Below are positions 19,177 through 42,094 of a stretch of 64,000 bases of DNA, in pieces (positions within the stretch are counted from its first letter, which is position 1; each line of letters starts with the position of its first letter). The notes below the pieces were generated by a model, which did no database searches, was not told the DNA's origin, and saw nothing but the letters and a program-made list of their open reading frames with translations. The position numbers and the translations under genes are program-made. The stretch is from an uncultured Nitrososphaerota archaeon (lineage in GTDB: Archaea; Thermoproteota; EX4484-205; JAAOZO01): NCBI GenBank assembly GCA_964408285.1, contig CAYOYV010000002.1, forward strand, positions 44,833-108,832, read 5' to 3'.

Positions 19177-19225
19177 GGAACCGTTCACCTTTTTAAGCCG
19201 TTCGCTAATTCTAGAAGTTGTAATC

Positions 19226-20686: not shown

Positions 20687-20692
20687 TCCCTC

Positions 20693-21892
20693 ATGTCGGA
20701 GGACTCACACTCTGCCTGGAGCAAACTGCCCATAGATCTTCAAGAGCAGTTCTACGGCAAAGTGGAGCAGGAAGCCAGGAGCCTGATAAAGGTCCTACAA
20801 GAGAGTGGAGTCGCCCTTGAGGAGGCAAAGCCAAAGATAAGGCCATACATACATGCCTCCACATTCGGAACCGACACGAATACGAAGATAGGGGCTGTGG
20901 ATGGGTCATTCTCCCCTAGGGCAAGTGAGAGGATTGGGGGTAGATTCGCGGTGTACTCTGCAGGATTTCTGATGCTAAAGGACAAAGAGATTACAGATGA
21001 AGGCTATTGGGGAGACGATTTCAGACAAGATCAATCATATCCTCATCCTCTATTCACAGCAGGGTTGCAGGTCATCGAGTCCGAAATCGAGAAGGAAGCT
21101 TCACTGCGAGCGTTGGAAAAAAACCCAGACCTGCTTCTCGTCGATGGCGGCTTCCTTGGATTCGCATATTCTTTATTCAAGATCAGAAAAGAAACAAGCG
21201 TTCCGGATTGGCTGGAGAAAAGAGCCCAACATGCTCTGGAGATGACGTATAGATTGCTGGACTCCGGAAAGTGCGCAGGAGTTGTCAAGAGGGGAAGAAG
21301 CAGAGCAATAGGAGGGTGGCTGTCGATGTTGGCAAGAAGAAGGAGCCCTCTTGTTAGATATCTTGACAAACAGATATTGTACGCCATGATGTCACCCCCT
21401 TCGGTTCTAGATTACGCTGAGATCCTAGGACGGCCGGGTTTCCACAGAACACATACAAGAATCAGTGAGCTTCTAGACAGTGGAAGAACAACGGACCCAA
21501 TCGAGGCAATGGAAGAGGCTAAGTTCTGGGCTGTGAACTCAATGGCAAAAGCTCTCGGAACCACCGACGAGAGAAAGATCAGGGATTTGGAATCACGCAT
21601 TAACAGGATTCAAATCAGGGTCAGCGAAGATGCTCCTCCCTTTGAACTGGAGCTGGCAGCAGGTTCCGAAGACCGAATCATGAGAGCTTTGTTCTCAAGC
21701 TCGGATAACTTCAATCGGGCAACTGGACTCCCTATCGCGATAGATCTTGTCGATGAATATGTGTCCCTCCCCATGGAGTTCACAAAGGAATTCGTGACAG
21801 AGGTCGAGGCTAGATTGGCACAAATGTACGAAGGGGATCTAAACGACGTAAAAGGATTTTTCTCGAATATGAATCCTCAGAAAGAGTCGTAG
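20693..21892 (+). CDS. nurA: NurA-family nuclease
   Basis: GAVDGS, E..A, LLLVDG, GVVKR and GLPIAIDLVD motifs; 6 bp downstream of herA. Confidence 0.82.
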   Translation: MSEDSHSAWSKLPIDLQEQFYGKVEQEARSLIKVLQESGVALEEAKPKIRPYIHASTFGTDTNTKIGAVDGSFSPRASERIGGRFAVYSAGFLMLKDKEITDEGYWGDDFRQDQSYPHPLFTAGLQVIESEIEKEASLRALEKNPDLLLVDGGFLGFAYSLFKIRKETSVPDWLEKRAQHALEMTYRLLDSGKCAGVVKRGRSRAIGGWLSMLARRRSPLVRYLDKQILYAMMSPPSVLDYAEILGRPGFHRTHTRISELLDSGRTTDPIEAMEEAKFWAVNSMAKALGTTDERKIRDLESRINRIQIRVSEDAPPFELELAAGSEDRIMRALFSSSDNFNRATGLPIAIDLVDEYVSLPMEFTKEFVTEVEARLAQMYEGDLNDVKGFFSNMNPQKES

Positions 21893-21993
21893 GTGGTGTC
21901 AGGATAAGCAGATAATACAAGCAAATGTGAGACCAGAGATCGGAATTACGAATCTCTTATATAGCTTTGGGGCTCTGCCTTAATAGCAGAAAA

Positions 21994-24624
21994 ATGAGAA
22001 GAGAAGAAATGGGATTAGTAGGCCTCTCGTTCTTGATTCTCTTACTGTTATCGTATGTCACTCCAAGCATGCTCTATATGGCATCAGCTCCTGTGTCCGA
22101 ACTCGCTAGGACATTTTGGCCAACTGATGATGCCCAAATCTATCAGAAATACCCAGATTCCAACTACGGTGGTCTTACATGGGTGGCCGTCCAGAGCGCG
22201 ACTTCTGAGAATTGTCGCGGCTTGCTACGCTTTGACCTGAGCAACATCCCGCCCGGTGCCAAGGTGATTTCAGCAAGGGTGTATCTGTTCAAATACATCG
22301 CACCTTCGGTATCGAGAACGTACTACTGCCATCCCGCCAGTAGTTCCTGGTCAGAAAGCTCACTAACCTGGAACAATCAGCCAGGAATATACACAACAGG
22401 ATCAACCACGGTTATAGGTACGACTCCAAGCACATGGTCAAGCTGGGATGTGGCTTCATCGGTTCAGAAGTTCGCGGCGAGAGATGCTGCCAGTGCCGCA
22501 TCAAACTACGGATGGAAGATAGGGGATAATAGTGAAGGTTCGGTCACTACTTATCAATCCTTCTTCTATTCGAAAGAACACAGCGATGCTGCATATCGAC
22601 CCTATCTGAGACTGACATATTATCCCCCTCATCTTGAACTCCAAACATATGGCTCGTCATTCGTTGCCGGGAATTGGGTCAAGATGACAGTGAATAGGAA
22701 GGATTACGATAACAACCCAATAACCAGGGGTAATCTCAATGTCAAGATGACCTCAACTTCAACTTCACTGAACAAGAAATTCTCTCTGTCAGAGGGAGGA
22801 GCAGCTATTACAAGCTTGGTTATTCCAGACGGTTCAAGCTCCAAGGACTTCTGGTATTATGATGACAAGGCAGGGACTTGGACAATCCAGGCATTCACTG
22901 ACGATTACATGTACTACGTGAGCGGAGTTCCCCCGTACATGATATTTGAGATGAACTACGGCGATGATAAGGCGCAGCAGACTGTGAATCCGGCCGCTCT
23001 GGATCGTTTCGTCCTGAATACGATATCGTCTCCCAAGACTGCTGGGGAAGCCTTTATGATAACTATCACAGCAAAGGATGTCTACGGCAACACTGTAACA
23101 ACCTATACCGGCACGAATTCGCTTTCAGACACGACTGGAACAATGGCGCCACCGTTGACGGGTGCCTTCGTGTCTGGTGTGTGGTCCGGGAATGTAATCA
23201 TCAATAAGGTCGCTTCCGCAGTTAGGATTTCAACGTCAGGGGGAGGGAAGACAGGGCAAAGTAACGCTTTCGATGTGAAGGCTGGCCCCCCAGCGAAAAT
23301 TGCCATAAAGCCAGCGACATTGACTGCTGCTGCAGCAGTCCAATATTCTTCAATCACACTTTCTATTAGGGACAGTCACGACTTCAATACTTCAAGTGCC
23401 TCGGCGATAGTCATCGCGCTATCTACAACATCCCCTGACGGGGAGTTCAGGAATCCAGGAACTACGACGAGGATAACCAGCATCACCGTGCCTCCCGGCG
23501 CGACTTACGTGCTTGTTGACTATTTTGACATAAGAGGTGGGACTTGGATACTCACCGCCTCTGCTGCGGGCTTGAGTTCTGGAACAGCAACGGTCACTGT
23601 AATCCCTGATACTAGGCCACCGGAAACCAGCATTAATGCCGGTTCTCCCAAGTATCAGACCAGCACAACTCTATATGTTACAGATCTCACAGCATTTACG
23701 CTCTCTGCTATTGACGACGCTAGCGGAGTAAAGGAGACCAAATACAGGATAGACACCGGGCCCTGGACTCTATATTCAGGAGATTTCAATCTGGGTACGT
23801 ACTCCGAAGGGACTCACACCATCGGATTTTACAGTGTTGACAGGGCAGGCAATTCAGAGCCTGAGAGAACTCTATCCGCTTTCATCGACAAGACACCTCC
23901 CCGGGTCCAGATCATAGAGCCAGTGGGATCGGTCGTGGCCAAGACAGCTTCTGTCAGATTTAGGGCCTCAGTTGTGGAAACAGGTTCTGGCATTGCCACT
24001 ATTGAGTGCATACTTGATGGAACATCAAAGGGCCCGATGGCAAAGGAAGGAGAGGCATATGCAATTACCTTGGATGTTGTGCCTGGAATGCATAGATGGA
24101 GTGTTGACGCAGTAGACAATATTGGAAACACCTTGGGGGCAACTGCTGAGACTCAATTCATCCTGACAATCGATACTGATCCCCCAGTCATATCAAACGT
24201 TGCTCTCTCCCCTCCGTCACCTGTTTGGATGGAGCAAATCAAGGTGTCTGCCTCGATAACAGATGCGGCATCGGGCCTGAAGCAAGCCACCCTATATTAC
24301 TCAACCGATAGTGGTGCAACTTGGAGCAAGATCACCATGACTCCGACCGCAGGAGCCTTCGAGGCCACAATTCCCGCCCAAGGACCAATGGCGAAGGTAC
24401 AATACTACATCGAGGCCTCGGACCTGCTTGCGAATACAACCAGAAACTCCACTCAGGAGATCTCAATAGGAATACCGATCTGGGGTTATGGCGCTGGAGG
24501 CCTGATCATCGTGCTGATTCTTATATTCCTACTGACAAGGCTCACGGGTAAGCCTGCTCAGGTGCCCTCGCCCACTTACCCACCACCCCCTCAGCCCCAA
24601 CCTCCTCCGCCGCCACCTCCCTAG
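21994..24624 (+). CDS. Cell-surface protein: DNRLRE domain, several Ig-like domains, C-terminal TM anchor and poly-Pro tail
   Basis: Signal/TM; DAQI...PDSNYG...RGLLRFDLS...FYSKE...RPYL; DTRPP/DKTPP/DTDPP Ig-repeat junctions; YSVDRAGN; TM then PPPPQPQPPPPPPP. Confidence 0.8.
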   Translation: MRREEMGLVGLSFLILLLLSYVTPSMLYMASAPVSELARTFWPTDDAQIYQKYPDSNYGGLTWVAVQSATSENCRGLLRFDLSNIPPGAKVISARVYLFKYIAPSVSRTYYCHPASSSWSESSLTWNNQPGIYTTGSTTVIGTTPSTWSSWDVASSVQKFAARDAASAASNYGWKIGDNSEGSVTTYQSFFYSKEHSDAAYRPYLRLTYYPPHLELQTYGSSFVAGNWVKMTVNRKDYDNNPITRGNLNVKMTSTSTSLNKKFSLSEGGAAITSLVIPDGSSSKDFWYYDDKAGTWTIQAFTDDYMYYVSGVPPYMIFEMNYGDDKAQQTVNPAALDRFVLNTISSPKTAGEAFMITITAKDVYGNTVTTYTGTNSLSDTTGTMAPPLTGAFVSGVWSGNVIINKVASAVRISTSGGGKTGQSNAFDVKAGPPAKIAIKPATLTAAAAVQYSSITLSIRDSHDFNTSSASAIVIALSTTSPDGEFRNPGTTTRITSITVPPGATYVLVDYFDIRGGTWILTASAAGLSSGTATVTVIPDTRPPETSINAGSPKYQTSTTLYVTDLTAFTLSAIDDASGVKETKYRIDTGPWTLYSGDFNLGTYSEGTHTIGFYSVDRAGNSEPERTLSAFIDKTPPRVQIIEPVGSVVAKTASVRFRASVVETGSGIATIECILDGTSKGPMAKEGEAYAITLDVVPGMHRWSVDAVDNIGNTLGATAETQFILTIDTDPPVISNVALSPPSPVWMEQIKVSASITDAASGLKQATLYYSTDSGATWSKITMTPTAGAFEATIPAQGPMAKVQYYIEASDLLANTTRNSTQEISIGIPIWGYGAGGLIIVLILIFLLTRLTGKPAQVPSPTYPPPPQPQPPPPPPP

Positions 24625-24721: not shown

Positions 24722-25453
24722 ATGAAATACCGTCTGCTTTGCGAGATAGGACCAGATGGTTCCACTCAGATACTTGTTCAGGATTTACCTGGATGCTATA
24801 GCAGAGCCCCGACATTCGACGAGGCAGTCAGGAAGGTGCCAAACAAGATACGAGAATTCCTTGACTGGTTGAGGATACATGGGGAATCGATTGAGGAAAC
24901 CCAATATGATGTTGAGACGGAGATATCAGAGACAATAAGAGGATGCTGGCCAGTGAATCTAGGTGACAGCCAAGCGTTGTTCAATGCAGATCTAAAGCCG
25001 CTGAACCAAGAAGAAGTGGATCGTTATCTCAATTATATGAGCTATGCTCGCGAGGACCTAATCGATCTTTATCTGAGAGTCCCGAAGGATGCGTTGGAAT
25101 GGAAGCCAGACGATTCAACTCCTAGGAACATAAAACGCATTGCAGAACATGTGGGGGAAGTTGATTTGTTCTATATCGAGAGACTCAGAGGAAGAAGACA
25201 CGAAGAATGGCCTCTGAATTTCCTGGAGACGACAGAGGAGACAAGGAAATTGAGGATGCTTGCTCTCTCGAAAGATGAGAGGAATTGCAGCGTGAGCTAT
25301 CACCAGCCGGGAGGTTGGACCGGAACAACAAGCCCAGAAGGTTGGACGGCCAGAAAGGTTCTGAGGAGATTCATATGGCATGAGAGACTCCACACCGCCA
25401 CCATGAAGAGGCTCCTCAACCTGTTTGCTCAGCCAAAACAGGGAAAGCCATGA
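24722..25453 (+). CDS. HicB-like N-terminal domain fused to a DinB-like four-helix domain
   Basis: VQDLPGCYSRAPTFDEAV (HicB-like); IAEHVGEVD and WTARKVLRRFIWHERLH (DinB His triad). Confidence 0.75.
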   Translation: MKYRLLCEIGPDGSTQILVQDLPGCYSRAPTFDEAVRKVPNKIREFLDWLRIHGESIEETQYDVETEISETIRGCWPVNLGDSQALFNADLKPLNQEEVDRYLNYMSYAREDLIDLYLRVPKDALEWKPDDSTPRNIKRIAEHVGEVDLFYIERLRGRRHEEWPLNFLETTEETRKLRMLALSKDERNCSVSYHQPGGWTGTTSPEGWTARKVLRRFIWHERLHTATMKRLLNLFAQPKQGKP

Positions 25454-25609: not shown

Positions 25610-27145
25610 ATGAGTGGGATTAGGTTCAGATATTCCGGCATCGTCGCATTCTCTGCCAATATCCTTTCGGTCCTCACGGGTCTTATCTTCTCGGTTGTGG
25701 TGACAAGGAGGTTATCGGTGCAGGAGTTTGGCACTTGGCAATTCTACTCGAGCTCATTAGCATATTTCGCCTTGCCCTCATATATAGTGAATTACTGGCT
25801 CACAAGGAACATTGGCCGTGGCAAGAGTGCTGTGAATTCAGCTCTGACGTTCAATGCCGTTTTCTCTTGGCTGGCGACGATCCTTTTCTTCGCAACATCG
25901 ATTGTTCTGACGAACTACGCTTATGCTTCCAATGAGGTGATTATAGTCTTCGGGATTTGGCTCCTAACGTCATATCTCTCTTCCACAACTGACGCCGCTG
26001 CCTCCGGTTCGCTTCCACACTTGTACGGATACGGGGTAGCGGTGTTTGAACTGGCCAAGGTCATCTCTGGCGCGATTCTAGTTGCTTGGCTAAGACTGGG
26101 GCTTGCAGGAGCCGTGATTTCCGTCGATATCGCACTATTACTGAGGTTCGTCCTTCTGTATTTCCTTGTTCCAGAGTCTCTAAAAGGGAGGATTGGGTTC
26201 TCAGAGGCATTTGGCTGGCTCAGGAGATTCTGGATTCCGCTAACCAGTGTTTTGCCGGGTCTGATATTCTCCCTAGATGTAATTCTTGTAACCATAATAA
26301 CGGGCAATCCAACTTCCGCTGCGTATGTCAGAGCCTCCACGACCTTTTCGATGGTGATTCTATTCTCCAACTCCCTTTCCATCGCACTGTATCCGAAGCT
26401 TCTATCTGGAGGTGGTAGAAAGGAAATCGAGGACTCCCTAAAAATGGTAATGATGTTTGCGATTCCGATGTTCTTGGGCATTTTCTTCCTTGCCGAACCA
26501 TTGCTCTATCTTCTAAGGGCTCAGTATGCCACCGCGGTATGGGTATTGAGAGCCTACGCAACTCTACATTTCCTGGGAACGATCAAGGCGATTCTTATCA
26601 CGATTCTTCTTGGCACAGAGAAAGTCGACATTGACGAAACGGCAACATACAAGGAATTCTCGTCTTCATCGTTGATGAAGGTGCCAATGGCCGACATTCT
26701 CAATTCATCGATATATATCGGCGTGATTCTAGTTTCGTCCTTCTGGCTGAATTCTATTGGAACCGAACCTGTGATGCTCTCACTGAGTCTGGCAGTTATC
26801 TACATTGTGGCAATGCTGCCATTTCTCCTATACTATTGGAGGGCCTCGAAGAGAAGAGTGGAGTATTCGTTCCCGGTTGGGAGTCTCGCAAGATACCTCG
26901 CAGCAGGTTCAGTGATGGTTTGCTTCCTGTTGTTCTTCTTCCCAACTGGAGCTATGAGCGAGCAGATATTCAACGTCATGGTGTCCCTACTTCCAGTGAT
27001 CGGGGTAAGTGCCATCCTATACTTCTCAGTTCTGATCGCAATAGATGGAGAAACAAGGCAGCTCGTCGTATTGGTGCTAGCGAGAATTGAGAAAATCATC
27101 AAAGACCTCCAGTCTCCCATTACTCAATCCGACAAGGGGCAATAG
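25610..27145 (+). CDS. Wzx/MOP-superfamily oligosaccharide flippase
   Basis: About 14 TM helices; VTRRLSVQEFGTW N-terminal pattern and ALYPKL motif of polysaccharide exporters. Confidence 0.78.
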   Translation: MSGIRFRYSGIVAFSANILSVLTGLIFSVVVTRRLSVQEFGTWQFYSSSLAYFALPSYIVNYWLTRNIGRGKSAVNSALTFNAVFSWLATILFFATSIVLTNYAYASNEVIIVFGIWLLTSYLSSTTDAAASGSLPHLYGYGVAVFELAKVISGAILVAWLRLGLAGAVISVDIALLLRFVLLYFLVPESLKGRIGFSEAFGWLRRFWIPLTSVLPGLIFSLDVILVTIITGNPTSAAYVRASTTFSMVILFSNSLSIALYPKLLSGGGRKEIEDSLKMVMMFAIPMFLGIFFLAEPLLYLLRAQYATAVWVLRAYATLHFLGTIKAILITILLGTEKVDIDETATYKEFSSSSLMKVPMADILNSSIYIGVILVSSFWLNSIGTEPVMLSLSLAVIYIVAMLPFLLYYWRASKRRVEYSFPVGSLARYLAAGSVMVCFLLFFFPTGAMSEQIFNVMVSLLPVIGVSAILYFSVLIAIDGETRQLVVLVLARIEKIIKDLQSPITQSDKGQ

Positions 27146-27147
27146 AG

Positions 27148-30100
27148 TTATCTCGTTTCTACTCCCTCGGCTGGTTGTTCGTATGTCAAGAGTAGCTTTT
27201 CAGCTTGGACTTCTGTGTATTTGCTGCCCGAGATTATCGCGACGTTCTTTTTCAGGATGATGCTGGCCAAAGTCATCGCAGAGCTGATGGCCCCGTCGTC
27301 TGAGTCTATTGTGACCGTGTCCACATCCCTGAGTTCCTCCACGAGTCTGGATACAGTGCCCTGTGGATTCTCCACCGATATCTTCCTGACTTCTATAGCA
27401 GGCGGCCAAATGCCCTCCCTCCACAATTTCCTCTTCAGCTCATTCATTTTCTGAGTCGTTTCTCCTCTTGAATAGACTATGAGAAGCTGCGGATGATATA
27501 CCCTAACTAGAGAGAGGAGGGGCTCAATTGAACTTCCGAATGGAGCAGCAACCCTTGCCTTCGAGGCGGTCCACTCGAATACCAGCCTCCTTATGTGAGA
27601 AGCGACTTCGTGGACCTGTGTCTCTGCCATCTTGGGGTATGCGGAGTCTGGGTTTACCCTGAGTGAGACCTGAAATCCAGTTCCTTCTCCGCTTTTGACT
27701 TCTATTGTATTATTCGAGGTGAATCCCTTGTTTCCGCTTCTGCTGTACTTGAACCTAACAGAGTGAAGAGGCCTACCATATTCGTCAACAGTGGACTTCT
27801 TTGAGACTTCGCCTATCAGTATCTCTAGTTGCTTCCCGCTTGCCGGCAACCTTTCGGCCAGATAATCGACCAGAATATTCACCTTCTCTTGGGGAACTCG
27901 GGCAGGTATTTGCAGGATCCATTCATTTCCTATCTTCGCATGTTCCTCAAGCTTCCACTTAATCCTGAGAGAAGGCGTTGCAATTCTCGATGCGGTAAAT
28001 GCAGGGATTGCTGCGCCTATCACGGAGACCAATACAGAGATCCCGACTATTGAGAGCATGTCGCCTGTTGATGTCTTGACGTCGACGGGTATTGAAACGC
28101 CTCCTAGAGAGAAAAGACGGAATGCGGCGAAACTCAGCAGATAACCGATTCCTCCACCTATTATTCCAAGCATAGCTCCCTCCGCCACATGGAGAAGGAA
28201 TATGTGCGTTGGATTCAGGCCCACAGCGGAAAATGCGAATATCTCCGACCTTCTCTCTTGGACCGATGAGAGCAAAACCACTAGTATGTTGAGGACGATT
28301 ATGACAAGTGGGATAATTGCTGAAACTCCCGTCAGCTCATTGACGGAACCCCTGAAGAAGAAAACCGGATTCCCACCACTGGGAAGTGCGAGGGCATAGA
28401 AATTAGCGAGCAAAGACAGCCTTTCTCCCGCAGAAAGAATGTCCTCGCTACGGACTTCACAATACAGTTTTGACACCCTTGCTCCAAGTTTCATTGAGGT
28501 GGTGTCAGACGCAAGCAATAGGAATTCCGGGTCAACAGTAGTGTTCAACGCTGCCGGGCCTGCGACGATCTGTATTGGCAGCCATTCCGCTCCATCTGGG
28601 TCCTTTAGACTCCTCAGTCTTGAACCATCGAAAACTCCAACAATCAACAGCTTGACATTCTTGAACACCAATGACATGCCGACTTCCAGTCCCTGTGATC
28701 TTGCAACGTAGTCACTTATGAGAACGGAATTTCCCTCCAAGAATAATCTGTCTGTTGCGTTTCGAGGATTGGTTGATGCCTTGATAACATCAATGTTTGG
28801 ATCGCCTTTCGCTATTCCTCTCACGGCCATTATCGTAACTGAGCCTATCTCCCCTATGCCAGACTGGGATGGGGGCGATTCAGCCTTCGCATAGGCCCCT
28901 ATTAGGCCCGACTGGCTTGAGACAAAGTCCAAATCAATCCGAGTGAAGAATCCAGTGGGTTTTGACACCAGAATAAGACTTGGGCTTTCGAGTGGCCACC
29001 TGGAATTCATAACGAATTGGCTAGCCCCAATAGTTGTCCTCATCGCGCTGAAAGTCGATAATCCCAACACAAACGTGGTAAGGGATATCAGGGATAGCAG
29101 TGTCCTTGTCTTCCTTTTCTTCATGTTCCCTGACGAGTAAGAAATGGCCAACATTATGGCGGGGACTAGGCTGACCCCTCCCTCACTCCTATAGTTGCTC
29201 ATCAGCCTCGGCAAGAGGAAGAAAAGAATCAAAGCCACGAACAGGAAATAGGATCCGATTATGGCCTCCCCGAAGGAGAATTGAGCAAATCCAGGATATG
29301 TCTGATACACGATCGTCATCACCACTGCGAATGAGATAACAAGGAAGACTACTTCATCGCTGATCTTCTCAAACAACGAACCTGCCAAAGCAACGCAGAC
29401 CAAGATCACAAGAGCGAAGATGGCCACTTGGCTGGTCGTCGCGCCCTTGTATATTGTATTCATAGCACCCAGTATGTTCATGCTGACCAAGTACGCCCTC
29501 TTCTGGGCTTCTGCACCAACAGCAGGATTCACTGTTGAGTTGAATAGGATCAAGGCTCTGTCTATTTCTTCTAGCCTTTGGGATTCCAGGCCAAGATAGA
29601 ACCCCTGCAAGCTCTGCTTCTCCACCGCCTTCTTGGCCTGTTCCACCATTCTATCGACCAGCATTTGATTCCTAGCAACCAACATTGAGGCGAGTGAGGT
29701 GGAATTCACCGTCTCGCTTTCCTCCGCAATCAGAGGCATCGAAGCATTCCCCAACGAGCCATAGATTATCTCATTGCCGATCCTTGCCTTCAGGGTGATT
29801 GCCAGAGGGATGTCAGAGGGAATTACAATGCTGCTGGGGTCTATGTTGAGAAGCCTGAGGTAAACGGCGTTCGTACTGGTGTAGTTCGTAACGAGGCTGG
29901 TTCCTTTTGGCAAAGCATAGACCTTCTCGAAAAGGACTCCGATTGCTTTGAATGATAGCTCGATGTCCGGGATTCTGTCTTGAGATATCTCAGTGACGAA
30001 GTTTGCTATTTTGACAATGGAACCTGGGATTAGGGTCAGATTAGCCGATTTCCTGTCGCCCGGGTTCGCATTGCCAAGACTCGCAATGACAGGAACATAT

Positions 30101-32595
30101 ACGCGATCTGACTCAATCACGGGGCCCCATAGCTCCAATCTACTTGTGCTCGGCATGCAAGTATAGGCCGAGCCGTTACGGACTTCCAAGAACCTGTAGG
30201 AATCACCCAGGACTAGCAGGAACAGAGAACGCGAAGGCATTTCGGCCCCAGTCAAAGAAACCTGCAAAGCAGCTGCCGCCCTGACGGAGAAGTCAAAGTG
30301 ATTTACATCCTGAATGGAACCGTTGTTTGACTCGATGTACGTTTCGAATCTCAGACGATGACTCGAGTCCAAAAACGCTGGCATACGCAATGGAAAATGC
30401 CCAGCAAGAAAGGGCACCGAGTCGCTGCTTGGGATTGTTACGTTGAAAATGCCTGAATCCATGATTGAAGAGGTTGTCAGATCCAAGAGCCTCCAACTAA
30501 GCCTAGCGTTCTTCGCAGCATTCGGATCGTCATTGACTATCCAAACGTTGAGTCTGACAAGGGTTTCGAGGTCGCAGCTTAGCTCGGTACGCTTTGTGAT
30601 GAAATCCCCTGCCCATTCTATGATCGCATGAGTCGGCCTAAACGCCTCGGAGACAATAAGACTGGAGGACTTCTGCGTCCCATAGTAGTCCAATAGAGAG
30701 CCGGATACGGAGGGAAGGTAGTCCCTGAATAATCCTACAGTGATCCCTTCGGTATAGTTCCCCTTCAACAACCTTGCCCTTTCAATTGCCGTCTTCAATA
30801 TGGTGGCCTGATATCCCTGGCTCTCGTTCACGTAGTCAGAAAGGCTCTTGTATTCCTCAGGATTACCAAGATAGGAATACCATAGATTTGCTGAATAGCC
30901 ATAGCCCTCCAACGAACGAATTAATCCGGAGGAGATCTGGTTTCCTTGGAACATAGACCAGAAGATAGACTGAGCTGAAGGAAGGGATTGAGATCCCAAT
31001 ACGACCGGGAATGCCGACAAGTAGGATCTATAATTCTCCCAAGTCCGAGAACCCCATCCGAAATTCAGGAATTCATTCTCACTGCCAGAACCTTCTATGG
31101 TATGTCTATCGTGGTCCAACTCGCCCAACAACTCGGACAGAGACGCATCTGCCATCCTGTTGGCTCCTAATCTGAATAGATCTCCTGCACTTTCATCTGT
31201 CCAAGGGGGGAGTGTGTGAATACACCAGAGGACAACGCTCGGGCTGTTGTAGAGCATAAGTACCAACCTGATCAGTTGTCTCTGTGCCTCCCTCAAGGCC
31301 TCTTTGTCTGTGTCCAAAGACTTGGCATATCCGATCAAAGGCAGATCGCCCTGGACCATGAAGCCGTGGGCGTCAGCGTATTCATAGAAAGCAAGGGGTT
31401 CAACATGTGCGATTGGTCTAAGGAAATTCACATTCATCTTGCGAAGTAGCTCATAGTCCGCGGCCAGATTGGCTGTTGAAGATGTGAAATTGTATGGATC
31501 CGATACATACGTTGTCCCCCTTAGGAAAATTCGTCTTCCGTTAATCGAGAACCTGGATCCAGTGTTACCAAAAGCTGCCACGAAATCTCTGAAGCCAAAT
31601 GCTCCGCTTATAGAGCCCTGACTTTTCGAGCCAACGAGCAGCTCGACCTTGAACTGATAGAGGTTCGGAGAGCCAAGATCCCAAGTTGACCAAGGAAGTG
31701 GATTTCCCGCTGCCAGATTCGCTTCCACCCACTTTGCCTCACCTGGATCAAGATCTGCCTTAATCCAGGACATCAAGGGTGATTCCTTCGAGCCGTCTAG
31801 ACTCACCGACAAGGAGATGTCTGTTGAAGCCTTTGCTGTACCGGTGTTCTTTACGAACAAACGGAAGTTTGCACTTGCGCTGCCCCCTAGGGTCCCAGCA
31901 ACAAGCGCGAGTTGAACGACAGTGCTGCCCGTTGTTGCCAGTTCGACATCATTCCACAGACCGATAGGCATTGCCGGATCTGTGCCAATTGGACCAATGC
32001 TTTGCCCAATGGGTCCGCTTGTTCCGTAGAGGCCAGTTAGGAGCCCGATCGACTCCTTATCTACAAGTGAATCAACGAACACCGTCAGCAGATTGTCAGA
32101 ACCATGAACAAGGACATTAGTCACATCGAAAAAGAAGGGAGAAAAATATCCTGTGTGAGAACCTAGGTACCTACCATTGAGCCAAACATCTGCCTTTGCC
32201 CAAACGCCCTTGAAGACGATAATGTATCTCTCCCCCTTCAATTCAGTAGGCGGCGTGAAGGTCCTCCTAAGCCAGAGCGTGGAATTATGTCTCGTAGACT
32301 TGAATTCAAAGGGGACGACAACCTTGTTCCAAGAGCCATCATCATAGGATTCTTCGTAATATAATTCATAGTTGCCCCGCTCGAATGTGTCGTAGACATA
32401 TTTCCATTCTCCGCTAAGTGAGATCTTAGTAATCGCGAAATAGTTGGGTTGTATGAAGGTTTGGAGCACCTCTTCCGTTATCCCCTTCTCAGCCGGAACT
32501 ATGATGTATTGTAGAATTGGAAGGAAGGCGATCCAAATCGTGAACAATGCGATTAGGACCGAAGACAACAAGCGCAGCCTCGTCCTATTCACCAA
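27148..32595 (-). CDS. 1815-aa fusion: N-terminal TM, GH2 (beta-mannosidase-like) module with degenerate active site, MacB/FtsX-type permease, C-terminal CARF-like domain
   Basis: GH2: SLSGEWKY, VWLNGRYLGSHTGYFSPF, WSTWDLGSPNLY, FGFR, INGRRIFLRG. FtsX: KRKTRTLLSLIS, SVQERRSEIFAFSAVGLNP, EGAMLGIIGG. Tail: VAAPFGSSIEPLL...PQLLIVYS...VTIDSDDGAISSAMTLAS. Confidence 0.85.
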   Translation of the reverse strand: MVNRTRLRLLSSVLIALFTIWIAFLPILQYIIVPAEKGITEEVLQTFIQPNYFAITKISLSGEWKYVYDTFERGNYELYYEESYDDGSWNKVVVPFEFKSTRHNSTLWLRRTFTPPTELKGERYIIVFKGVWAKADVWLNGRYLGSHTGYFSPFFFDVTNVLVHGSDNLLTVFVDSLVDKESIGLLTGLYGTSGPIGQSIGPIGTDPAMPIGLWNDVELATTGSTVVQLALVAGTLGGSASANFRLFVKNTGTAKASTDISLSVSLDGSKESPLMSWIKADLDPGEAKWVEANLAAGNPLPWSTWDLGSPNLYQFKVELLVGSKSQGSISGAFGFRDFVAAFGNTGSRFSINGRRIFLRGTTYVSDPYNFTSSTANLAADYELLRKMNVNFLRPIAHVEPLAFYEYADAHGFMVQGDLPLIGYAKSLDTDKEALREAQRQLIRLVLMLYNSPSVVLWCIHTLPPWTDESAGDLFRLGANRMADASLSELLGELDHDRHTIEGSGSENEFLNFGWGSRTWENYRSYLSAFPVVLGSQSLPSAQSIFWSMFQGNQISSGLIRSLEGYGYSANLWYSYLGNPEEYKSLSDYVNESQGYQATILKTAIERARLLKGNYTEGITVGLFRDYLPSVSGSLLDYYGTQKSSSLIVSEAFRPTHAIIEWAGDFITKRTELSCDLETLVRLNVWIVNDDPNAAKNARLSWRLLDLTTSSIMDSGIFNVTIPSSDSVPFLAGHFPLRMPAFLDSSHRLRFETYIESNNGSIQDVNHFDFSVRAAAALQVSLTGAEMPSRSLFLLVLGDSYRFLEVRNGSAYTCMPSTSRLELWGPVIESDRVYVPVIASLGNANPGDRKSANLTLIPGSIVKIANFVTEISQDRIPDIELSFKAIGVLFEKVYALPKGTSLVTNYTSTNAVYLRLLNIDPSSIVIPSDIPLAITLKARIGNEIIYGSLGNASMPLIAEESETVNSTSLASMLVARNQMLVDRMVEQAKKAVEKQSLQGFYLGLESQRLEEIDRALILFNSTVNPAVGAEAQKRAYLVSMNILGAMNTIYKGATTSQVAIFALVILVCVALAGSLFEKISDEVVFLVISFAVVMTIVYQTYPGFAQFSFGEAIIGSYFLFVALILFFLLPRLMSNYRSEGGVSLVPAIMLAISYSSGNMKKRKTRTLLSLISLTTFVLGLSTFSAMRTTIGASQFVMNSRWPLESPSLILVSKPTGFFTRIDLDFVSSQSGLIGAYAKAESPPSQSGIGEIGSVTIMAVRGIAKGDPNIDVIKASTNPRNATDRLFLEGNSVLISDYVARSQGLEVGMSLVFKNVKLLIVGVFDGSRLRSLKDPDGAEWLPIQIVAGPAALNTTVDPEFLLLASDTTSMKLGARVSKLYCEVRSEDILSAGERLSLLANFYALALPSGGNPVFFFRGSVNELTGVSAIIPLVIIVLNILVVLLSSVQERRSEIFAFSAVGLNPTHIFLLHVAEGAMLGIIGGGIGYLLSFAAFRLFSLGGVSIPVDVKTSTGDMLSIVGISVLVSVIGAAIPAFTASRIATPSLRIKWKLEEHAKIGNEWILQIPARVPQEKVNILVDYLAERLPASGKQLEILIGEVSKKSTVDEYGRPLHSVRFKYSRSGNKGFTSNNTIEVKSGEGTGFQVSLRVNPDSAYPKMAETQVHEVASHIRRLVFEWTASKARVAAPFGSSIEPLLSLVRVYHPQLLIVYSRGETTQKMNELKRKLWREGIWPPAIEVRKISVENPQGTVSRLVEELRDVDTVTIDSDDGAISSAMTLASIILKKNVAIISGSKYTEVQAEKLLLTYEQPAEGVETR

Positions 32596-32619
32596 ACTGG
32601 CCTTGTACTTTTTTGCAAC

Positions 32620-32627
32620 TTTATAAA
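32620..32627. promoter_or_regulatory. Palindromic TATA box TTTATAAA, probably shared by two divergent genes
   Basis: Perfect palindrome in a 58-bp spacer, 24 nt from the minus-strand start (32595) and 26 nt from the plus-strand start (32654). Confidence 0.65.
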
Positions 32628-32653
32628 CGCTTCAATGTTGTCTGGAAATTGGA

Positions 32654-35062
32654 TTGGATAGCTCGCAGAGGATTTCTTTGGCGTCTCAGGTCTTCAGTGC
32701 TTTGAAGGCAAGGATCATCTTGATCTTGATGATCGCAATTTTGGTCTTTGCCCTTGCGTCCATAAAAACACTGTTCAGGGAAGGCATGATCCTTGGTCGG
32801 GACCATCCATTCCACATGCTTAATTGCTACTTCACAACGCTCTATATGTTACCGTCATTCAACATTCTTGGTTGGGATCCATACAACAACTATGGCTTGG
32901 TCTTCAATCAATACTACGATGCCGGGACGAACATCCTCATATCTCTGATCTACTACGCCTCCCTGGAACAGCTGAATATATTCGATTCCTACAAGGTTGC
33001 CTTCGCACTTGCCTATGTTCTCATGGCACCGGTTACCTACCTCTTCATTTATTCGATTTCGAAGGATAAAATGGCCGGGTTGGTGGGAGCACTGCTTTCC
33101 ATAATCGTGTTCCCAGCCGAGTCTTCCTTGTTCGATGCCGGTTTAAGACAAATGTACGAGACAGGAATGTGGCCTGAGAGATTCGGCAACGTACTCTGCT
33201 TTTTCGGTCTTGCTCTACTGATTCTGTCCTTTGAGGAGAAAAGCCTCTCGAAGAGGCTGCTGACAACGGCATGGACTTCTGTGATTTTCGCCTGGACCGT
33301 CTTGACTCACGTTGTCGCAGGCCTATCTTTGGCTTCACTGGCAGCAGTCGGATGGCTCCTGCCAAGTCTCCATGACATCAAGTCCGCCATTACCGAAAGC
33401 AAAGACGGAATTCCTGGAATGGTCACGACAATTCTGCATCAGAACCGGAGGAAAACGTTCTCCTATCTCTCGGTTTGGGCCCTTTCCATCGGCCTGTGTG
33501 CTTTCTGGACTATTCCCCTCCTGGAGACTTTAGAGAAGTTTTACAGCTTCCCCGCTATCTCCTCATCGGGGGGGACAGACATGCTTGTCCAGGTATTCCA
33601 GAGCCTCCCATGGTATGTGTTGGGTTTCTATGTCATAGGGGCCGCAACACCTTTTCTCGACAGGAGACAGATAAGGAATCCTCTTGCGATTGTGTCCCTT
33701 GCATCAGTCCTACTTCTTCAGATCCTGTCGTTGGTCAACCCAAACGACAAGTTCGTTGGGACAAGGTTGGTCTTCTCCGCATTGTTCTCCCTCATCTACT
33801 ACCTGACAACTGATGATTACGCTGTTGGTTTTTCCCTCACCGGGACCTCACTTCTCCTTCTTCTTTCCACGGGTCCAAGCACGCATGTGATCGATTTGCT
33901 CATCTTCAGACTGGACCTTTCGAACGCATTCTCCGTCGTTGCCTCTTTCGGGTATTCCAAGTTCGCCTCGGTGGCGCGGCTTGTGATTGTCATACTGTCT
34001 TCGATCGGATTCTCAAGATTGGCCAGCTTCCTTTATGCTCATGCTAGAACCGCTGGCTCCAAGAGGGAATTCGTCCCTGTCGTCTATTCAATCGTGCTTG
34101 GATTCATGATCTTCCTATTCCTCAACTTCCAGATCAGCACTCAGATGGAGAATACTGATCTGAACTATCCCTGGTCCCAGCAGATCAACCTGAAGCTCTC
34201 ATCCGATTTTCGACTTGTGAGTCAAGCCGATTCGCTGATCTCATGGATCAAGCAGAACGGGGATAGCAATTCCTACATCTTGATGCAGGACATCCTTGAT
34301 ATCGGAGACTGGATGGGTTTCCCGAAATCCCATTATCTGTACCTTACACCGGTTTTCACTGGAAAACCCATCGTGGGAGGAGTAGAGGGCAGCAACTATA
34401 TCACCAATCCGATCTCCACTACCGACGGGGGCCAAATTCTGTCAATGCCAATCTCCAGGATAGTTGGGGAACTGGGCACATTCGACAGGCTGCTGGGAGA
34501 ATTGGGAATAGGCCATGTTGTGGTCTTCGATATTAGATTGATCAAAGCCATGAATGCCAGCAGCCTGTTCCGCCTCTCGTACTATGACGGGTTATTTGCC
34601 GTCTTCAGAAGAGCAGAGCCCGCGTACATAGCCAGCGTTCAGAACGCCGGGGAAATCCTTGAAGCGACCTACGAGATAAATGCGATGTCCTTCAAGGTCT
34701 CTGGGGCTGAAGGCAACTCGTCACTTCGTATAAGAGCTGTCGATTATCCGGGATGGTCTGCCAAGGTGAACGGAGAAAGCACAGAGATTCATCAGTATCG
34801 CCCTAAGATACAATCAGTGATGAATTGGAAGGGGGTCGTCGTTCCGGACTATGAAGTCCCATTCATTGAAATCTCATTGCCCGCCGGTCAATCACGAGTA
34901 GTTCTTGATTACCATAGGTCAACGGCCGGGGACTCGATCACAGGTGTCTCGCTTGTGCTGTTTGCCGCCTTCAACCTGCTTGGATCAGCCGTAATCGTGA
35001 AAGATCTCTATGCTAAGAGTGGTTCATCTGTCAAACATGCTGCGTTGAAGGGATTTCAGTGA
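32654..35062 (+). CDS. GT-C-type multi-pass membrane glycosyltransferase (PTPS-related/YfhO-like)
   Basis: GRDHPFH after the first TM; GWDPYNNYG...FNQYY; many TMs; C-terminal DYPGWSAKVNG (YfhO-like) and a final TM. Confidence 0.75.
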   Translation: MDSSQRISLASQVFSALKARIILILMIAILVFALASIKTLFREGMILGRDHPFHMLNCYFTTLYMLPSFNILGWDPYNNYGLVFNQYYDAGTNILISLIYYASLEQLNIFDSYKVAFALAYVLMAPVTYLFIYSISKDKMAGLVGALLSIIVFPAESSLFDAGLRQMYETGMWPERFGNVLCFFGLALLILSFEEKSLSKRLLTTAWTSVIFAWTVLTHVVAGLSLASLAAVGWLLPSLHDIKSAITESKDGIPGMVTTILHQNRRKTFSYLSVWALSIGLCAFWTIPLLETLEKFYSFPAISSSGGTDMLVQVFQSLPWYVLGFYVIGAATPFLDRRQIRNPLAIVSLASVLLLQILSLVNPNDKFVGTRLVFSALFSLIYYLTTDDYAVGFSLTGTSLLLLLSTGPSTHVIDLLIFRLDLSNAFSVVASFGYSKFASVARLVIVILSSIGFSRLASFLYAHARTAGSKREFVPVVYSIVLGFMIFLFLNFQISTQMENTDLNYPWSQQINLKLSSDFRLVSQADSLISWIKQNGDSNSYILMQDILDIGDWMGFPKSHYLYLTPVFTGKPIVGGVEGSNYITNPISTTDGGQILSMPISRIVGELGTFDRLLGELGIGHVVVFDIRLIKAMNASSLFRLSYYDGLFAVFRRAEPAYIASVQNAGEILEATYEINAMSFKVSGAEGNSSLRIRAVDYPGWSAKVNGESTEIHQYRPKIQSVMNWKGVVVPDYEVPFIEISLPAGQSRVVLDYHRSTAGDSITGVSLVLFAAFNLLGSAVIVKDLYAKSGSSVKHAALKGFQ

Positions 35063-35453
35063 AGGGAACCAACTGTCAATAATCGCATATGGAAATCGCC
35101 ACCTGTTCAGAGCACGACTCCGAGCAGCACAATCAGAGCTCACAGAAGATGAGCTCGCGTTAAATGTGATTCCAACTAATACCAAGCTAAGTGAAAGACA
35201 AATGGAGATATGAGGCAGAATAGGCAAATGGGGAAGATCCAGAATCAGCAAAGAAATCGATTGGAAGGAAATGGCCAAAGACCTTAGGGCTGACCTCGGT
35301 AGATCAGCATTCGCCTCCAGAACCACATATTACTTCAGCTGAAGAAGGGAGGTGGCGCACTAGGTTGAGAGGCTTTCTAAGACAACTATTCCTAACATAT
35401 CGTGAGCTTGCCTTAAATACGGTTGTGAGAAGGAACTAAACAAGGTGAGAAAC

Positions 35454-36680
35454 ATGGCAGAGAAGATCGTCGTCGAACCTGGAAGAACTGCGGATTTGGA
35501 CACCTTCGATGGAGATTTGGTGGCAGGTGGAAATTCGGTCATCAAATCCAAGTCAGGAGGCCCAATCGTGGTGACGGGCACGGCTAAATTCAAGGGAGAT
35601 TGCAACATTCATTCCAATTTCCAAGCCAAGAACGTAAGGGGAGAAGACGGGAGAATCCATGTGCTTGGTGATCTTACGGTCGATGAATCAATTGATGTCC
35701 GAGAGGGGGAAGTCTTGGTTGATGGCCAAGCAAAAGCCAAGGAAATAGATGTCGAGAGGAGGCTGACGGTCAAAGGAGACCTGCATTCAGAGAGGGTGGA
35801 CGTCGGGGGAAGTCTAGAGGTCGGGCGAGACTCCAATGTTACAAGAGTCAATGTGGGAGGAACCATGTCAATGAATGGCAATCTGAAGGGATCACAGCTG
35901 GATGTAGGTGGGTCGGCTGATGTAAGAGGAACAGTTGAACTTGAGAAGCTCTCTGTAGGCGGAAGCGCGAAGGTGGGATCAGGAACAATAAACTACATAT
36001 CAGTGGGTGGATTCCTTGAGTCAACCGGGAAGCTCAGGTTTCGAGAAATTGATGTAGGAGGCGCAGTAAGATTGGCCTCTGGGGAAGGGGAAGGAATAAT
36101 CAATGTCGGCGGAAAGGTGGATGTTGATGGAGACATCGAATTCAAGGAAATCGACGTTGGAGGGATGGCAACGATCAGAGGCAATGCAAAGGGCAAGAAG
36201 GTAGAGGTAGGAGGGAAGCTCAGAGTGGACAAGAGCGCGAAGATAGATGATAGTCTCGAAGTCGGTGGATCAGTCGACGTCCATGATGACCTCAGCGGAG
36301 GCGACATTGAAGTGGGAGGCTCTCTTCGAAGCAACATATGCATAGCACGCAAGGTGAGAGTTGGCGGAAGGGTCGAGACGGAAAAAGGAACCAAGGCGGA
36401 TGTCTTCGAGATAGGAAAGCGTGGGAATGTGAGAGGCCCTATCGTCGCAACCCGCGTAAGGATTGCAGATGGAGCCCAGGTCGAGGACATCTATGCAGAC
36501 GAAGTGGAAATTCGCAGGAATTCCTCCGCTCGAAATGTGTTCGCAAGAGCAGCAAGGATTGAAGGTGGATGTGAAATCTCGGGGGAGGTGTTGTACACGG
36601 ATAGGTTGGATTCCGACAGGGATGTTCAGTTCGGTTCAGAGCCCAAAAAAGTAGAAAAACTGCCGGGCCCCCCCGTTTAG
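35454..36680 (+). CDS. Long bactofilin-like (polymer-forming cytoskeletal) beta-helix protein
   Basis: 12 xxVGG repeats spaced about 16-18 aa apart; TATA-like cttaaata near 35412. Confidence 0.72.
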   Translation: MAEKIVVEPGRTADLDTFDGDLVAGGNSVIKSKSGGPIVVTGTAKFKGDCNIHSNFQAKNVRGEDGRIHVLGDLTVDESIDVREGEVLVDGQAKAKEIDVERRLTVKGDLHSERVDVGGSLEVGRDSNVTRVNVGGTMSMNGNLKGSQLDVGGSADVRGTVELEKLSVGGSAKVGSGTINYISVGGFLESTGKLRFREIDVGGAVRLASGEGEGIINVGGKVDVDGDIEFKEIDVGGMATIRGNAKGKKVEVGGKLRVDKSAKIDDSLEVGGSVDVHDDLSGGDIEVGGSLRSNICIARKVRVGGRVETEKGTKADVFEIGKRGNVRGPIVATRVRIADGAQVEDIYADEVEIRRNSSARNVFARAARIEGGCEISGEVLYTDRLDSDRDVQFGSEPKKVEKLPGPPV

Positions 36681-36961: not shown

Positions 36962-37137
36962 CCTGCGCACAGCCGAAAAGCAATTACTGAGGGAATCGAT
37001 GTTCCATCCGCCAGAGAATCCTTCGCACCCGGGGCTTATATAGGGTGCTTCAGCGAGCCAAAACCGGCTCAGAATCCTGAATATTCTTGTCTAACGAAAT
37101 AGAAGATTTTATAAAACATGCCCTCACGGGGGCGGTT

Positions 37138-41385: not shown

Positions 41386-42094
41386 TGGTGTTCTACTCGA
41401 GATAAGCGATCTCTCTTCGGGATATGGAAAGATGTTGGTGGTTCAGCACAGCAATGTTAGGGTGGACAAGGGTGAGATAGTCTGCTTGCTCGGACCCAAT
41501 GGGAGCGGCAAGACCACACTTCTTAACACGATATGTGGACTGGCGAACAGATTTGAAGGCAAAATTATGTTCGACGGAATCGACATAACCAACTGCAAAC
41601 CAAATGACGCAGTAAGAATGGGAATAGGATATTCCCCCCAGGTCTCGAATGTGTTCCCGTCTTTAACGGCAGAGGAGAACCTCGAAGTTGGAGCATACAC
41701 CAAGAAAGGATATCGTAGAGAAGACCTAGAATCCGTGCTGTCTCTATTCCCCGAGCTCGAGAAACGCAGGAAGAGCCTGGCTATCACTCTCAGTGGCGGA
41801 GAGCGGCAGATGCTTGCAGTAGCCCGTTCACTGATTTCTGAGCCCAAGCTCCTTCTCTTAGACGAGCCGACAGCCGGGCTTTCCCCAATAGCTTCGAGCA
41901 CCCTATTGAGAAAGGTAACGGAGATAAGGAAGAGGGGGAAGACGATATTGTTGGTTGAACAGAATGCGAGGAGGGCACTTGAGATATCAGACAGGGCTTA
42001 CGTCATGGTTGGAGGAACAATTGTCTTTGATGGAATAGCGCACGATGCTCTGAACGACCCTGAATTGGCACGACTATATTTTGGCACAACTTGA
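41375..42094 (+). CDS. livF: Branched-chain amino acid ABC ATPase
   Basis: GPNGSGKT, LSGGERQM, LDEPTAGL and VEQNA motifs. Confidence 0.92.
   Translation: MATDGVLLEISDLSSGYGKMLVVQHSNVRVDKGEIVCLLGPNGSGKTTLLNTICGLANRFEGKIMFDGIDITNCKPNDAVRMGIGYSPQVSNVFPSLTAEENLEVGAYTKKGYRREDLESVLSLFPELEKRRKSLAITLSGGERQMLAVARSLISEPKLLLLDEPTAGLSPIASSTLLRKVTEIRKRGKTILLVEQNARRALEISDRAYVMVGGTIVFDGIAHDALNDPELARLYFGTT

Follow-up and report, generated by a model that had tools for sequence, protein, structure and literature searches.

The 64,000-nucleotide stretch analysed here (the window; positions 44,833 to 108,832 of contig CAYOYV010000002.1, from an uncultured Nitrososphaerota archaeon) carries at window positions 25610–35062 three adjacent genes whose products are all polytopic by hydropathy: a 511-residue candidate flippase (plus strand, 25610–27145), an 1815-residue protein, hereafter the giant (minus strand, 27148–32595), and an 802-residue glycosyltransferase of the GT-C fold (plus strand, 32654–35062). 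The flippase and giant genes converge, with stop codons 2 bp apart (TAG at 27143–27145 and, as read on the plus strand, TTA at 27148–27150), and the giant and GT-C genes diverge from first start codons TTG at 32595 and TTG at 32654, with 58 bp between them. A sequence-only reading of this DNA had described three membrane genes with a 2-bp gap and a 58-bp spacer bearing one palindromic TATA, and its coordinates proved exact. It had also seen no adjacent ABC ATPase or cas gene, and a Pfam scan of the 47 open reading frames (ORFs) of the window agrees, having found no ABC ATPase adjoining the trio and no cas family. The nearest ABC ATPases belong to LIV-type genes of a branched-chain amino-acid transporter operon (40594–42094), and another lies at 61062–61988. 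Rfam and tRNA scans of the window gave no matches.

Hydropathy and Pfam matches order the giant as an anchor helix, a GH2 module, beta domains with a stalk, three transmembrane helices, an FtsX module and a 273-residue cytoplasmic tail (all coordinates below are on the minus strand). Because the N-terminus preceding the signal-anchor helix (residues 10–33; 32497–32568) is basic, the positive-inside rule makes an N-in orientation likely, which would put the head outside the cell and the tail inside; the densities of sequons, 11.9 per 1000 residues in the head and 3.7 in the tail, differ too little to support this topology. The predicted extracellular GH2 module (residues 55–660; 30616–32433) has the sugar-binding jelly roll, Ig and TIM-barrel domains of that family. 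PF02837 (Glyco_hydro_2_N), PF22666 (Glyco_hydro_2_N2) and PF00703 (Glyco_hydro_2) scored above cutoff, PF02836 (Glyco_hydro_2_C) reached 19.1 bits, under its cutoff of 21, and the head gave 150 GH2 matches among PDB sequences (best E 6.9e-21).

The head lacks the residues that GH2 catalysis would need. At the acid/base position the giant reads HTLPPW (NE replaced by TL), compared with GNENDW in the aligned β-glucuronidase 6d7j and HNEPPW in active orthologues of the giant, the latter aligning with the NEP of other glucuronidases; at the nucleophile position it reads VVLGSQS (E replaced by L), compared with SEFGAQS in active orthologues. We take these two positions to be the catalytic Glu residues of GH2 enzymes. 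Among the related archaeal loci described below (L001–L015), both motifs are intact in L011, L012 and L014, as they are in the database protein P0005; the L001 giant keeps the nucleophile motif; and both motifs are lost in the window and in 11 loci (L002–L010, L013 and L015). Within this dead clade TIM-barrel identity is 63%, compared with 56–72% for the other regions of the giant. Since the dead barrel is conserved like the rest of the protein, it would retain a non-catalytic function, most simply glycan binding, and the alignments thus argue that the clade is kept under constraint. Between the GH2 module and the membrane lie predicted extracellular beta domains and a helical stalk with a GFYxGLE motif (residues 661–1045; 29461–30615), including a Mannosidase_ig-like domain at about residues 682–735 (PF17786, E 5.3e-5). 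Stalk residues G998 and Y1000 are invariant across 22 giants.

The membrane core starts with three extra transmembrane helices followed by a basic cytoplasmic stretch (residues 1046–1160; 29116–29460); this region contains a Y-P-G element whose P1101 is invariant in three alignments of giants. It continues with an FtsX/MacB/LolE-type module (residues 1161–1542; 27970–29115) made up, as in FtsX/MacB permeases, of four transmembrane helices and a MacB_PCD-like extracytoplasmic domain between the first and second. FtsX (PF02687) matched residues 1425–1538 with 49.5 bits against a cutoff of 25.5. MacB_PCD had no direct Pfam match in the window giant and did match orthologues, in 21 of 29 FtsX-bearing relatives scanned singly and 32 of 50 more. 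The coupling-helix motif ERRxEI...GLNP is conserved at E1447, R1448, E1451, G1459, N1461 and P1462. The cognate ABC ATPase that such permeases have, fused to them or encoded in their operon, was absent from the genes adjoining the giant, both in the window and among the neighbours scanned at the loci.

The cytoplasmic tail was modelled with AlphaFold2 (AF2) from 37 sequences (residues 1543–1815; predicted local distance difference test score, pLDDT, 85.4; predicted template-modelling score, pTM, 0.56) and falls into two domains. The first, an alpha/beta domain designated cyt1 (residues 1543–1678; 27562–27969), was modelled in blocks mostly at pLDDT 80–94. It gave no Pfam match, no Atlas match and no clean Foldseek match; phmmer detected it in 73 of 150 family representatives, and it is common to most shorter family members. 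The second (residues 1679–1815; 27151–27561) is a CARF-like Rossmann domain with an acidic D-S-D-D-G loop after strand 4. DSSP assigned it six strands (model positions 139–143, 162–167, 191–196, 218–220, 242–247 and 250–255), the last two forming a hairpin, and the CARF core as defined by Makarova et al. 2014 (PMC4012209) likewise has six strands with a terminal hairpin. Foldseek searches of the PDB (E ≤ 1e-3) gave low-deviation superpositions only to CARF proteins, namely Csa3 (6wxq, 6w11, 2wte), Cam1 (8t65, 8t66), Can2 (7bdv) and Card1 (6wxw), with probability 1.00, root-mean-square deviations of 3.5–5.9 Å over 122–137 columns and E of about 1e-4. Every named family returned by an Atlas feature search of the tail was CARF, with scores of 0.78–0.82. 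A Toprim or receiver-domain reading of the D-S-D-D-G loop was rejected, the Foldseek neighbours being CARF proteins.

Two profiles of PADLOC-DB 2.0.0 also bear the CARF name: PDLC01990, 'CARF_m8--CARF_Beta-galactosidase_LolE_TM', aligns its positions 3–1787 of 1791 with giant residues 4–1802 (1336.8 bits), and its sister PDLC01991, 'CARF_m8--CARF_LolE_TM', matches residues 983–1802. Pfam gave no CARF match in the tail. A Ser or Thr stands at the end of strand 1, as in CARF domains: position 1689 is Ser in 25 and Thr in 1 of the 37 sequences, and G1687 is Gly in 23. The loop after strand 4, D-S-D-D-G-L-L-S, is conserved and residues 1763–1775 include nothing basic. The 2014 CARF definition (PMC4012209) stresses a Lys or Arg in the signature [DN]X[ST]XXX[RK], notes that families without it may bind other ligands, and gives RV2818 and RtcR as families that likewise lack it. 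On the model, then, the giant's tail is a non-canonical, CARF-like domain, and ligand binding by it is predicted.

The 802-residue protein (P0003) belongs to the GT-C enzymes by fold. It gave no Pfam or NCBIfam match and no PDB sequence match, all to E ≤ 10, and a word-index search retrieved six homologues; 17 sequences, including orthologues from the related loci, could be aligned. The AF2 model (pLDDT 83.3, pTM 0.87) has about 12–13 transmembrane helices, the last at the C-terminus, within the 7–13 of GT-C cores. Ranks 1–37 among the PDB Foldseek matches listed (E to 0.012) were all GT-C proteins, with TM-scores of 0.34–0.51; they include STT3/AglB (3.7e-8), AftD (2e-7), PglB, ArnT, DPY19, AftA, ALG12, EmbA/B, ALG3 and Pmt4. 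D50 and D75 lie in the first outer loop, just after the first transmembrane helix, as expected of the acidic loop of GT-C enzymes; they are invariant in the 17 sequences and would have a catalytic role. An extracytoplasmic alpha/beta and beta-sandwich domain (residues ~505–757) follows the core. Membership of STT3/AglB (GT66) by sequence was rejected, there being no sequence match in those searches and no WWD motif, the motif of STT3 being WWDxG. Going by the model, the protein is a GT-C enzyme by fold that could not be assigned to STT3/AglB or another sequence family. The first reading's calls of a dead GH2 head, an FtsX core, a CARF-like tail and a GT-C partner are thus all borne out.

A word-index search found only two full-length relatives of the giant; an exhaustive search with residues 1000–1815 returned 1793 representatives at E ≤ 1e-3, of which 157 had E ≤ 1e-30, ruling out that the protein is nearly unique. 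FtsX was found by Pfam in 79 of 81 relatives, the others (P0033 and P0062) being tail-only pieces. The heads vary, with GH2 in 9, CarboxypepD_reg in about 31 and an N-terminal M28 peptidase in one (P0140, 1455 residues). So does what follows cyt1, which is an ABC ATPase in one relative (P0121, 1192 residues) and a C-terminal PMT_2 GT-C domain in another (P0032, 1534 residues); P0032, P0121 and P0140 are single representatives each and are gene predictions. Judged by these domain matches, the cytoplasmic end of the family is modular. All 10 GH2-headed proteins among the 150 representatives searched with phmmer carry cyt1 and the CARF-like tail.

Related loci were sought in one genome scan with an alignment of five giants, which yielded 15 archaeal loci with full-length giants and 4 bacterial GH2-only loci; because the search patterns came from the GH2 head, shorter FtsX–CARF relatives without GH2 lie outside this sample. 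The archaeal loci come from metagenome-assembled genomes (MAGs) labelled Thermoprotei, Brockarchaeota, Thermofilaceae, Nitrososphaerota and Bathyarchaeia. An orthologue of the 802-residue protein (32–40% identity to it) stands head-to-head with the giant in 12 of the 15 loci, or 12 of the 13 testable, two being cut at a contig edge. The spacers of these pairs measure 21–103 bp. The pair is found in five of six testable lineages (the window, clades A1 and A2, L001 and L011/L012), whose giants share 30–67% identity. Pairwise identities of the GT-C proteins and of the giants correlate with r = 0.995 over 78 pairs, which shows co-inheritance only and not co-evolution, because kin share history. 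Of the two results that the sequence-only reading had named as refuting its claim, neither came up in the form in which it was put: the giant stays linked to the GT-C gene in other genomes, and the 802-residue protein does have a GT-C fold.

The neighbours of this pair point to lipid-linked sugars. ORF clustering with Pfam and NCBIfam annotation showed that in 10 loci, including the distant L001, the GT-C gene overlaps at its end with a gene of the UbiA family. Among NCBIfam models this gene scores highest with decaprenyl-phosphate phosphoribosyltransferase (221.7 bits in L001, with a cutoff of 234, and 169.4 in L007); UbiA models of distinct function (heme o synthase, prenyltransferases) come next, with at most 66 bits. 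Among solved structures it is closest to M. tuberculosis DPPRS (8j8j, 7e-34; DGGGP synthase, 4e-6). Directly downstream of the giant, on the same strand, nine loci carry BacA/UppP, the polyprenyl-diphosphate phosphatase. The window has its own BacA gene 11 kb from the giant (46006–46935, minus strand; Pfam BacA, 5.3e-65), an orthologue of the L007 neighbour downstream of the giant (tblastn, 45% identity). Other neighbours in the A1/A2 clade are DUF4432, a GFO/IDH/MocA oxidoreductase, a DHH-type protein, a sugar nucleotidyltransferase, a TrmB regulator and GT4. An ABC ATPase or cyclase had been expected to co-occur with the giant; neither was conserved, and the neighbours scanned in the window and at the loci included no ATPase, cas or cyclase gene adjoining the giant.

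Several loci show further features of the cassette. Two MAGs hold two paralogous whole cassettes each (L004 and L008 in JAFNIX01; L005 and L013 in JAWCMB01), arranged GFO–DUF4432–UbiA–GT-C / giant–BacA–DHH, with giants about 66% identical between copies; these could reflect whole-cassette duplication or mixed-strain bins. In the Thermofilaceae loci (L011, 2631–6085; L012, 4113–7563) the GT-C gene is followed by a gene for a 671–675-residue protein, which in L011 has CarboxypepD_reg repeats and a weak match to SlaB, the S-layer stalk (30 bits, cutoff 700). Two genes beyond it comes one for phosphoribosyl pyrophosphate (PRPP) synthetase, and these loci have no UbiA gene. About 8 kb downstream of the giant, L003 (17828–19156) and L008 (23998–25371) encode a conserved protein of 443–458 residues with about eight transmembrane helices and no Pfam match, which could be another membrane protein of a glycan pathway.

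The 511-residue protein (P0001) is a candidate divergent flippase of the MOP/Wzx (Polysacc_synt) type, a call that leans on its homologues' families. The protein itself, with about 10–12 hydrophobic segments where MOP/Wzx flippases have about 12–14 transmembrane helices, had no direct Pfam, NCBIfam or PDB sequence match. It has 116 homologues, several of them named 'O-antigen/teichoic acid export membrane protein' by JGI; among 32 that were aligned, PF01943 (Polysacc_synt) was found in 6 and PF13440 in 1. The flippase call of the first reading holds to this extent, whereas its conserved membership with the giant does not: none of the 15 giant-bearing archaeal loci has a homologue of this protein.

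The 58-bp divergent spacer (32596–32653) contains the self-complementary TATA-like octamer TTTATAAA at 32620–32627, with 24 nt between it and one start codon and 26 nt between it and the other. The window has two copies, compared with 0.61 expected, and 18 of 100 shuffles reach two, so this excess taken alone is not significant. The equivalent spacer carries it in 8 of 12 related loci. The spacer would act as a bidirectional promoter for leaderless transcripts. Near-identical database proteins begin 9 codons (P0004) and 8 codons (P0014) further in, so that the spacer may be about 109 bp long; the genes are divergent in either case. The second copy of the octamer (37108–37115) lies 21 nt within the longest ORF of the LIV-type binding-protein gene, counted from TTG 37087, and that gene probably starts downstream of this TTG.

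From these observations we consider the functional unit to be the divergent pair of giant and GT-C protein, not the trio, and propose that the two act jointly as an extracytoplasmic module of surface-glycan modification, to which we assign a probability of about 0.5. The pair probably remodels the cell-surface sugar coat. Because the neighbours in related loci are a UbiA enzyme resembling polyprenyl-phosphate phosphoribosyltransferase (PPPRS) and BacA, lipid-linked side-chain glycosylation, with pentofuranose, is indicated and not polymer export. The earlier analogy to the Pel and cellulose machines does not survive: the conserved partners are the UbiA enzyme and BacA, and no cyclase co-occurs. 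The GT-C protein would add a sugar from a polyprenyl-phosphate-linked donor at the outer face of the membrane. In relatives that donor would most likely be a pentofuranose on polyprenyl phosphate, which the UbiA-type enzyme encoded beside the pair would make from PRPP; the acceptor glycan could belong to an S-layer glycoprotein or to some other polymer of the envelope. The giant, in contact with the GT-C protein, would hold the acceptor glycan or, where its GH2 site is intact, trim it; as the head is catalytically dead in the window lineage, it would act there as a glycan-binding module. FtsX modules are dimeric in known systems. A dimer of the cytoplasmic tail may pass a conformational change outward through the FtsX helices and so set the position or activity of the head, with ligand binding to the CARF-like domain standing in for ATP hydrolysis in an FtsEX-like form of control. 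In the window, the MOP flippase could flip the lipid-linked donor, a role suggested by its adjacency in this one genome and matching that of MATE in the bacterial system discussed below.

A number of observations weigh against this reading. The CARF identity of the tail is open to doubt on several counts: the target-normalised TM-scores of its Foldseek matches are modest (0.24–0.48), the Atlas scores stay below 0.9 and are a lead only, and neither the canonical basic residue nor the [DN]X[ST]XXX[RK] signature was found in the pocket. The strongly conserved coupling-helix motif of the FtsX module could be the docking site of an ABC ATPase encoded elsewhere. As to the pairing, 8.7 kb upstream of the giant in L009 hold no GT-C gene, an epimerase and GalT being there instead, and BacA and most of the other synteny are restricted to the closely related A1/A2 clade. 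Tblastn (E ≤ 0.01) and Pfam found no PPPRS/UbiA homologue in the 64-kb window, so that the inference about the donor comes from the relatives. The fused PMT_2 domain of P0032 is a weak Rosetta-stone hint only, and was rejected as a member of the GT-C family studied here (hhalign probability 1%).

A stronger form of the proposal goes further: a CARF-like dimer would replace the ABC ATPase, and a cytoplasmic ligand would move the (pseudo)glycosidase head and thereby gate pentofuranosylation by the GT-C protein. CARF signalling would then serve a housekeeping purpose outside defence, and the giant would be the first type VII ABC-like machine driven by a ligand instead of ATP. We regard this form as speculative and unlikely.

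The best-placed alternative is that all three genes form one surface-glycan assembly or export machine, comparable to the Pel and cellulose systems, with the CARF-like domain as second-messenger receptor. The three genes adjoin in the window, the 511-residue protein comes from a MOP/Wzx-like family, L002 has a different MOP flippase some 8 kb downstream of its giant, and a MOP-superfamily flippase is a true part of the bacterial PPPRS/flippase/GT-C system (PMC11127046). Nevertheless, the flippase converges on the giant and therefore cannot share its transcript, its family is missing from the giant-bearing loci, and no polymerase, synthase, exporter or cyclase is conserved in the neighbourhoods scanned; such a machine is unlikely.

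The giant might instead be an ordinary ABC system served by an unlinked MacB/FtsE-like ATPase, its GH2 head a present or former nutritional exo-glycosidase and its adjacency to the GT-C gene mere inherited synteny. Strong conservation of the coupling-helix motif (ERRxEI...G), the ABC ATPase fused to P0121, the intact catalytic motifs of several lineages and a window rich in sugar catabolism (GH127, FGGY kinase, GFO/IDH/MocA oxidoreductases) all fit. This explanation accounts poorly for a barrel conserved after the loss of both Glu residues in the window and 11 loci, for a pair kept across lineages at 30–40% identity while other neighbours change, and for the absence of an adjacent ATPase from the neighbourhoods scanned, and we judge it distinctly improbable.

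More doubtful still is that the giant is a membrane effector activated by cyclic oligoadenylate, in type III CRISPR or a related system, that damages or remodels the envelope on infection. The end-to-end match to the CARF_m8 profile and structural neighbours that bind cA4 or cA6, including the membrane effector Cam1, speak for such a role, and transmembrane CARF effectors are a recognised class (PMC9704534). On the other side, no cas gene, cyclase or CRISPR element turned up in the window ORFs scanned or, for 8 of the 15 loci (L001–L003, L007–L009, L011–L012, L014 in part), among the neighbours scanned; the basic residue that binds the ligand in canonical CARF domains is missing from the tail, the genes conserved nearby are those of glycans and lipid carriers, and PADLOC gave no match in the other six window proteins tested.

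Least probable of all, and very unlikely, is a lipid-carrier guard in which the giant, built on an FtsX/MacB-type core like the BceAB-type transporters that recognise undecaprenyl-diphosphate complexes, senses or frees polyprenyl-(di)phosphate at the outer leaflet and, with the BacA immediately downstream in nine loci, feeds recycled carrier to the GT-C protein: the BacA linkage belongs to one clade only, the BacA of the window is far from the giant, and the 1000-residue GH2 head is left unexplained.

The proposed paired module has partial counterparts in known systems. The nearest to its GT-C side is that of Kelly et al. 2024 (PMC11127046), who describe a PPPRS (polyprenyl-phosphoribose synthase), a MATE flippase and a GT-C enzyme with a carbohydrate-binding domain (GT136) as a bacterial system for pentofuranose side chains. 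This three-component pathway resembles the mycobacterial DPPRS/DPA–Emb/Aft pathway. The archaeal loci resemble it in that 10 of them set a DPPRS-like UbiA gene beside a GT-C gene whose product bears an extracytoplasmic beta-rich domain, in that a MOP-superfamily flippase adjoins the pair in the window, and in that the 802-residue protein matches AftD, AftA and Emb, among others, in structure. They differ in their archaeal hosts, in a window flippase that is of the Polysacc_synt type, not MATE, and is not conserved, in a GT-C protein without sequence match to known glycosyltransferase families in Pfam, NCBIfam or PDB, and in the giant itself, a fourth, very large conserved partner without counterpart. 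The three roles all occur beside giants across the archaeal genomes and never together in one locus, the window being without a PPPRS and the relatives without a flippase of the window's type.

Through its four-helix FtsX module, MacB_PCD-like domain, coupling helix and tie to a glycan-active domain, the giant also resembles FtsEX, MacB, LolCDE and BceAB. Its closest analogue is FtsEX, which controls extracytoplasmic wall hydrolases. Unlike these type VII ABC mechanotransmitters, the giant has no fused or adjacent ATPase, its hydrolase-like domain is fused in cis and inactive in the window clade, it has three extra transmembrane helices, and cyt1 and the CARF-like tail replace the nucleotide-binding domain. 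Its D-S-D-D-G loop, its lack of Lys or Arg after strand 4 and its lack of CRISPR context set it apart from the CARF proteins Csa3, Cam1, Can2 and Card1. With GH2 beta-mannosidases and exo-glucosaminidases it shares the sugar-binding, Ig, TIM-barrel and Mannosidase_ig domains, and its active orthologues share the NEP and SEFGxQS motifs; the window giant differs from these glycosidases in lacking both catalytic Glu residues and in being tethered to the membrane at both ends.

Other genes of the window bear on these subjects more loosely. Directly downstream of the GT-C gene, in the position that the UbiA gene occupies in relatives, 35445–36680 encodes a 411-residue protein that has a weak match to 'choice-of-anchor A' and a bactofilin-like beta-helix domain. 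At 24722–25453, a short way upstream of the flippase gene, lies the gene for a 243-residue protein with a HicB-like antitoxin N-terminus and DinB_2, without PADLOC match. It is preceded by a gene (21967–24624) for an 885-residue predicted surface protein with an N-terminal hydrophobic segment, CBM96/DNRLRE, an OmpL47-type beta-barrel domain and a C-terminal transmembrane anchor; this protein, which is not conserved next to other giants, may be a glycoprotein on which the neighbouring system acts. The cluster at 16300–21892 is one of archaeal DNA end resection and consists of a gene for a large Lhr-type helicase (958 residues) followed by HerA-like (DUF87) and weakly NurA-like genes; an Lhr gene also adjoins the cassette in six related loci. 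A pentose/sugar cluster (42633–51308) comprises genes for an aldo-keto reductase, a GFO/IDH/MocA oxidoreductase, an FGGY kinase, a ribulose-phosphate 3-epimerase and a GH127 beta-L-arabinofuranosidase, with the BacA gene in its midst.

The system is less novel than first thought. It had been put forward as undescribed, whereas PADLOC-DB 2.0.0 holds a full-length profile of the giant's architecture, with the same order of GH2/beta-galactosidase, LolE/FtsX transmembrane and CARF regions; the architecture is thus already catalogued and not new, and the GT-C/UbiA part resembles a known bacterial pathway. The PADLOC profile is a catalogue entry to which no function, partner or catalytic state is attached. 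The name 'CARF_m8', which did not occur in the literature searched, looks like those of the 2020 CARF classification of Makarova et al. The papers listed by the literature searches gave no description of the giant's architecture, its pairing with a GT-C enzyme, the dead-GH2 clade or a non-defence context, a result on which Makarova et al. 2020 may bear. The features that appear to be new are a conserved partnership between a CARF_m8 protein and genes for a GT-C enzyme and lipid carriers, the dead-GH2 clade held under constraint, the absence of an ATPase and the non-defence setting.

CARF domains have been studied almost wholly as antiviral second-messenger sensors, and FtsX/MacB proteins as ATP-driven mechanotransmitters. 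In the giant's family the two are combined with no ATPase, and conserved gene pairing links them to a GT-C glycosyltransferase and to enzymes of the lipid carrier. Since the family has both active and dead GH2 heads, it offers a ready comparison for the function of the head. If the proposed coupling is true, these archaea would provide a testable case of nucleotide-type signalling that controls envelope glycosylation, and the polyprenyl-phosphoribose pentofuranose pathway, known from bacteria, would extend to Thermoproteota-related archaea.

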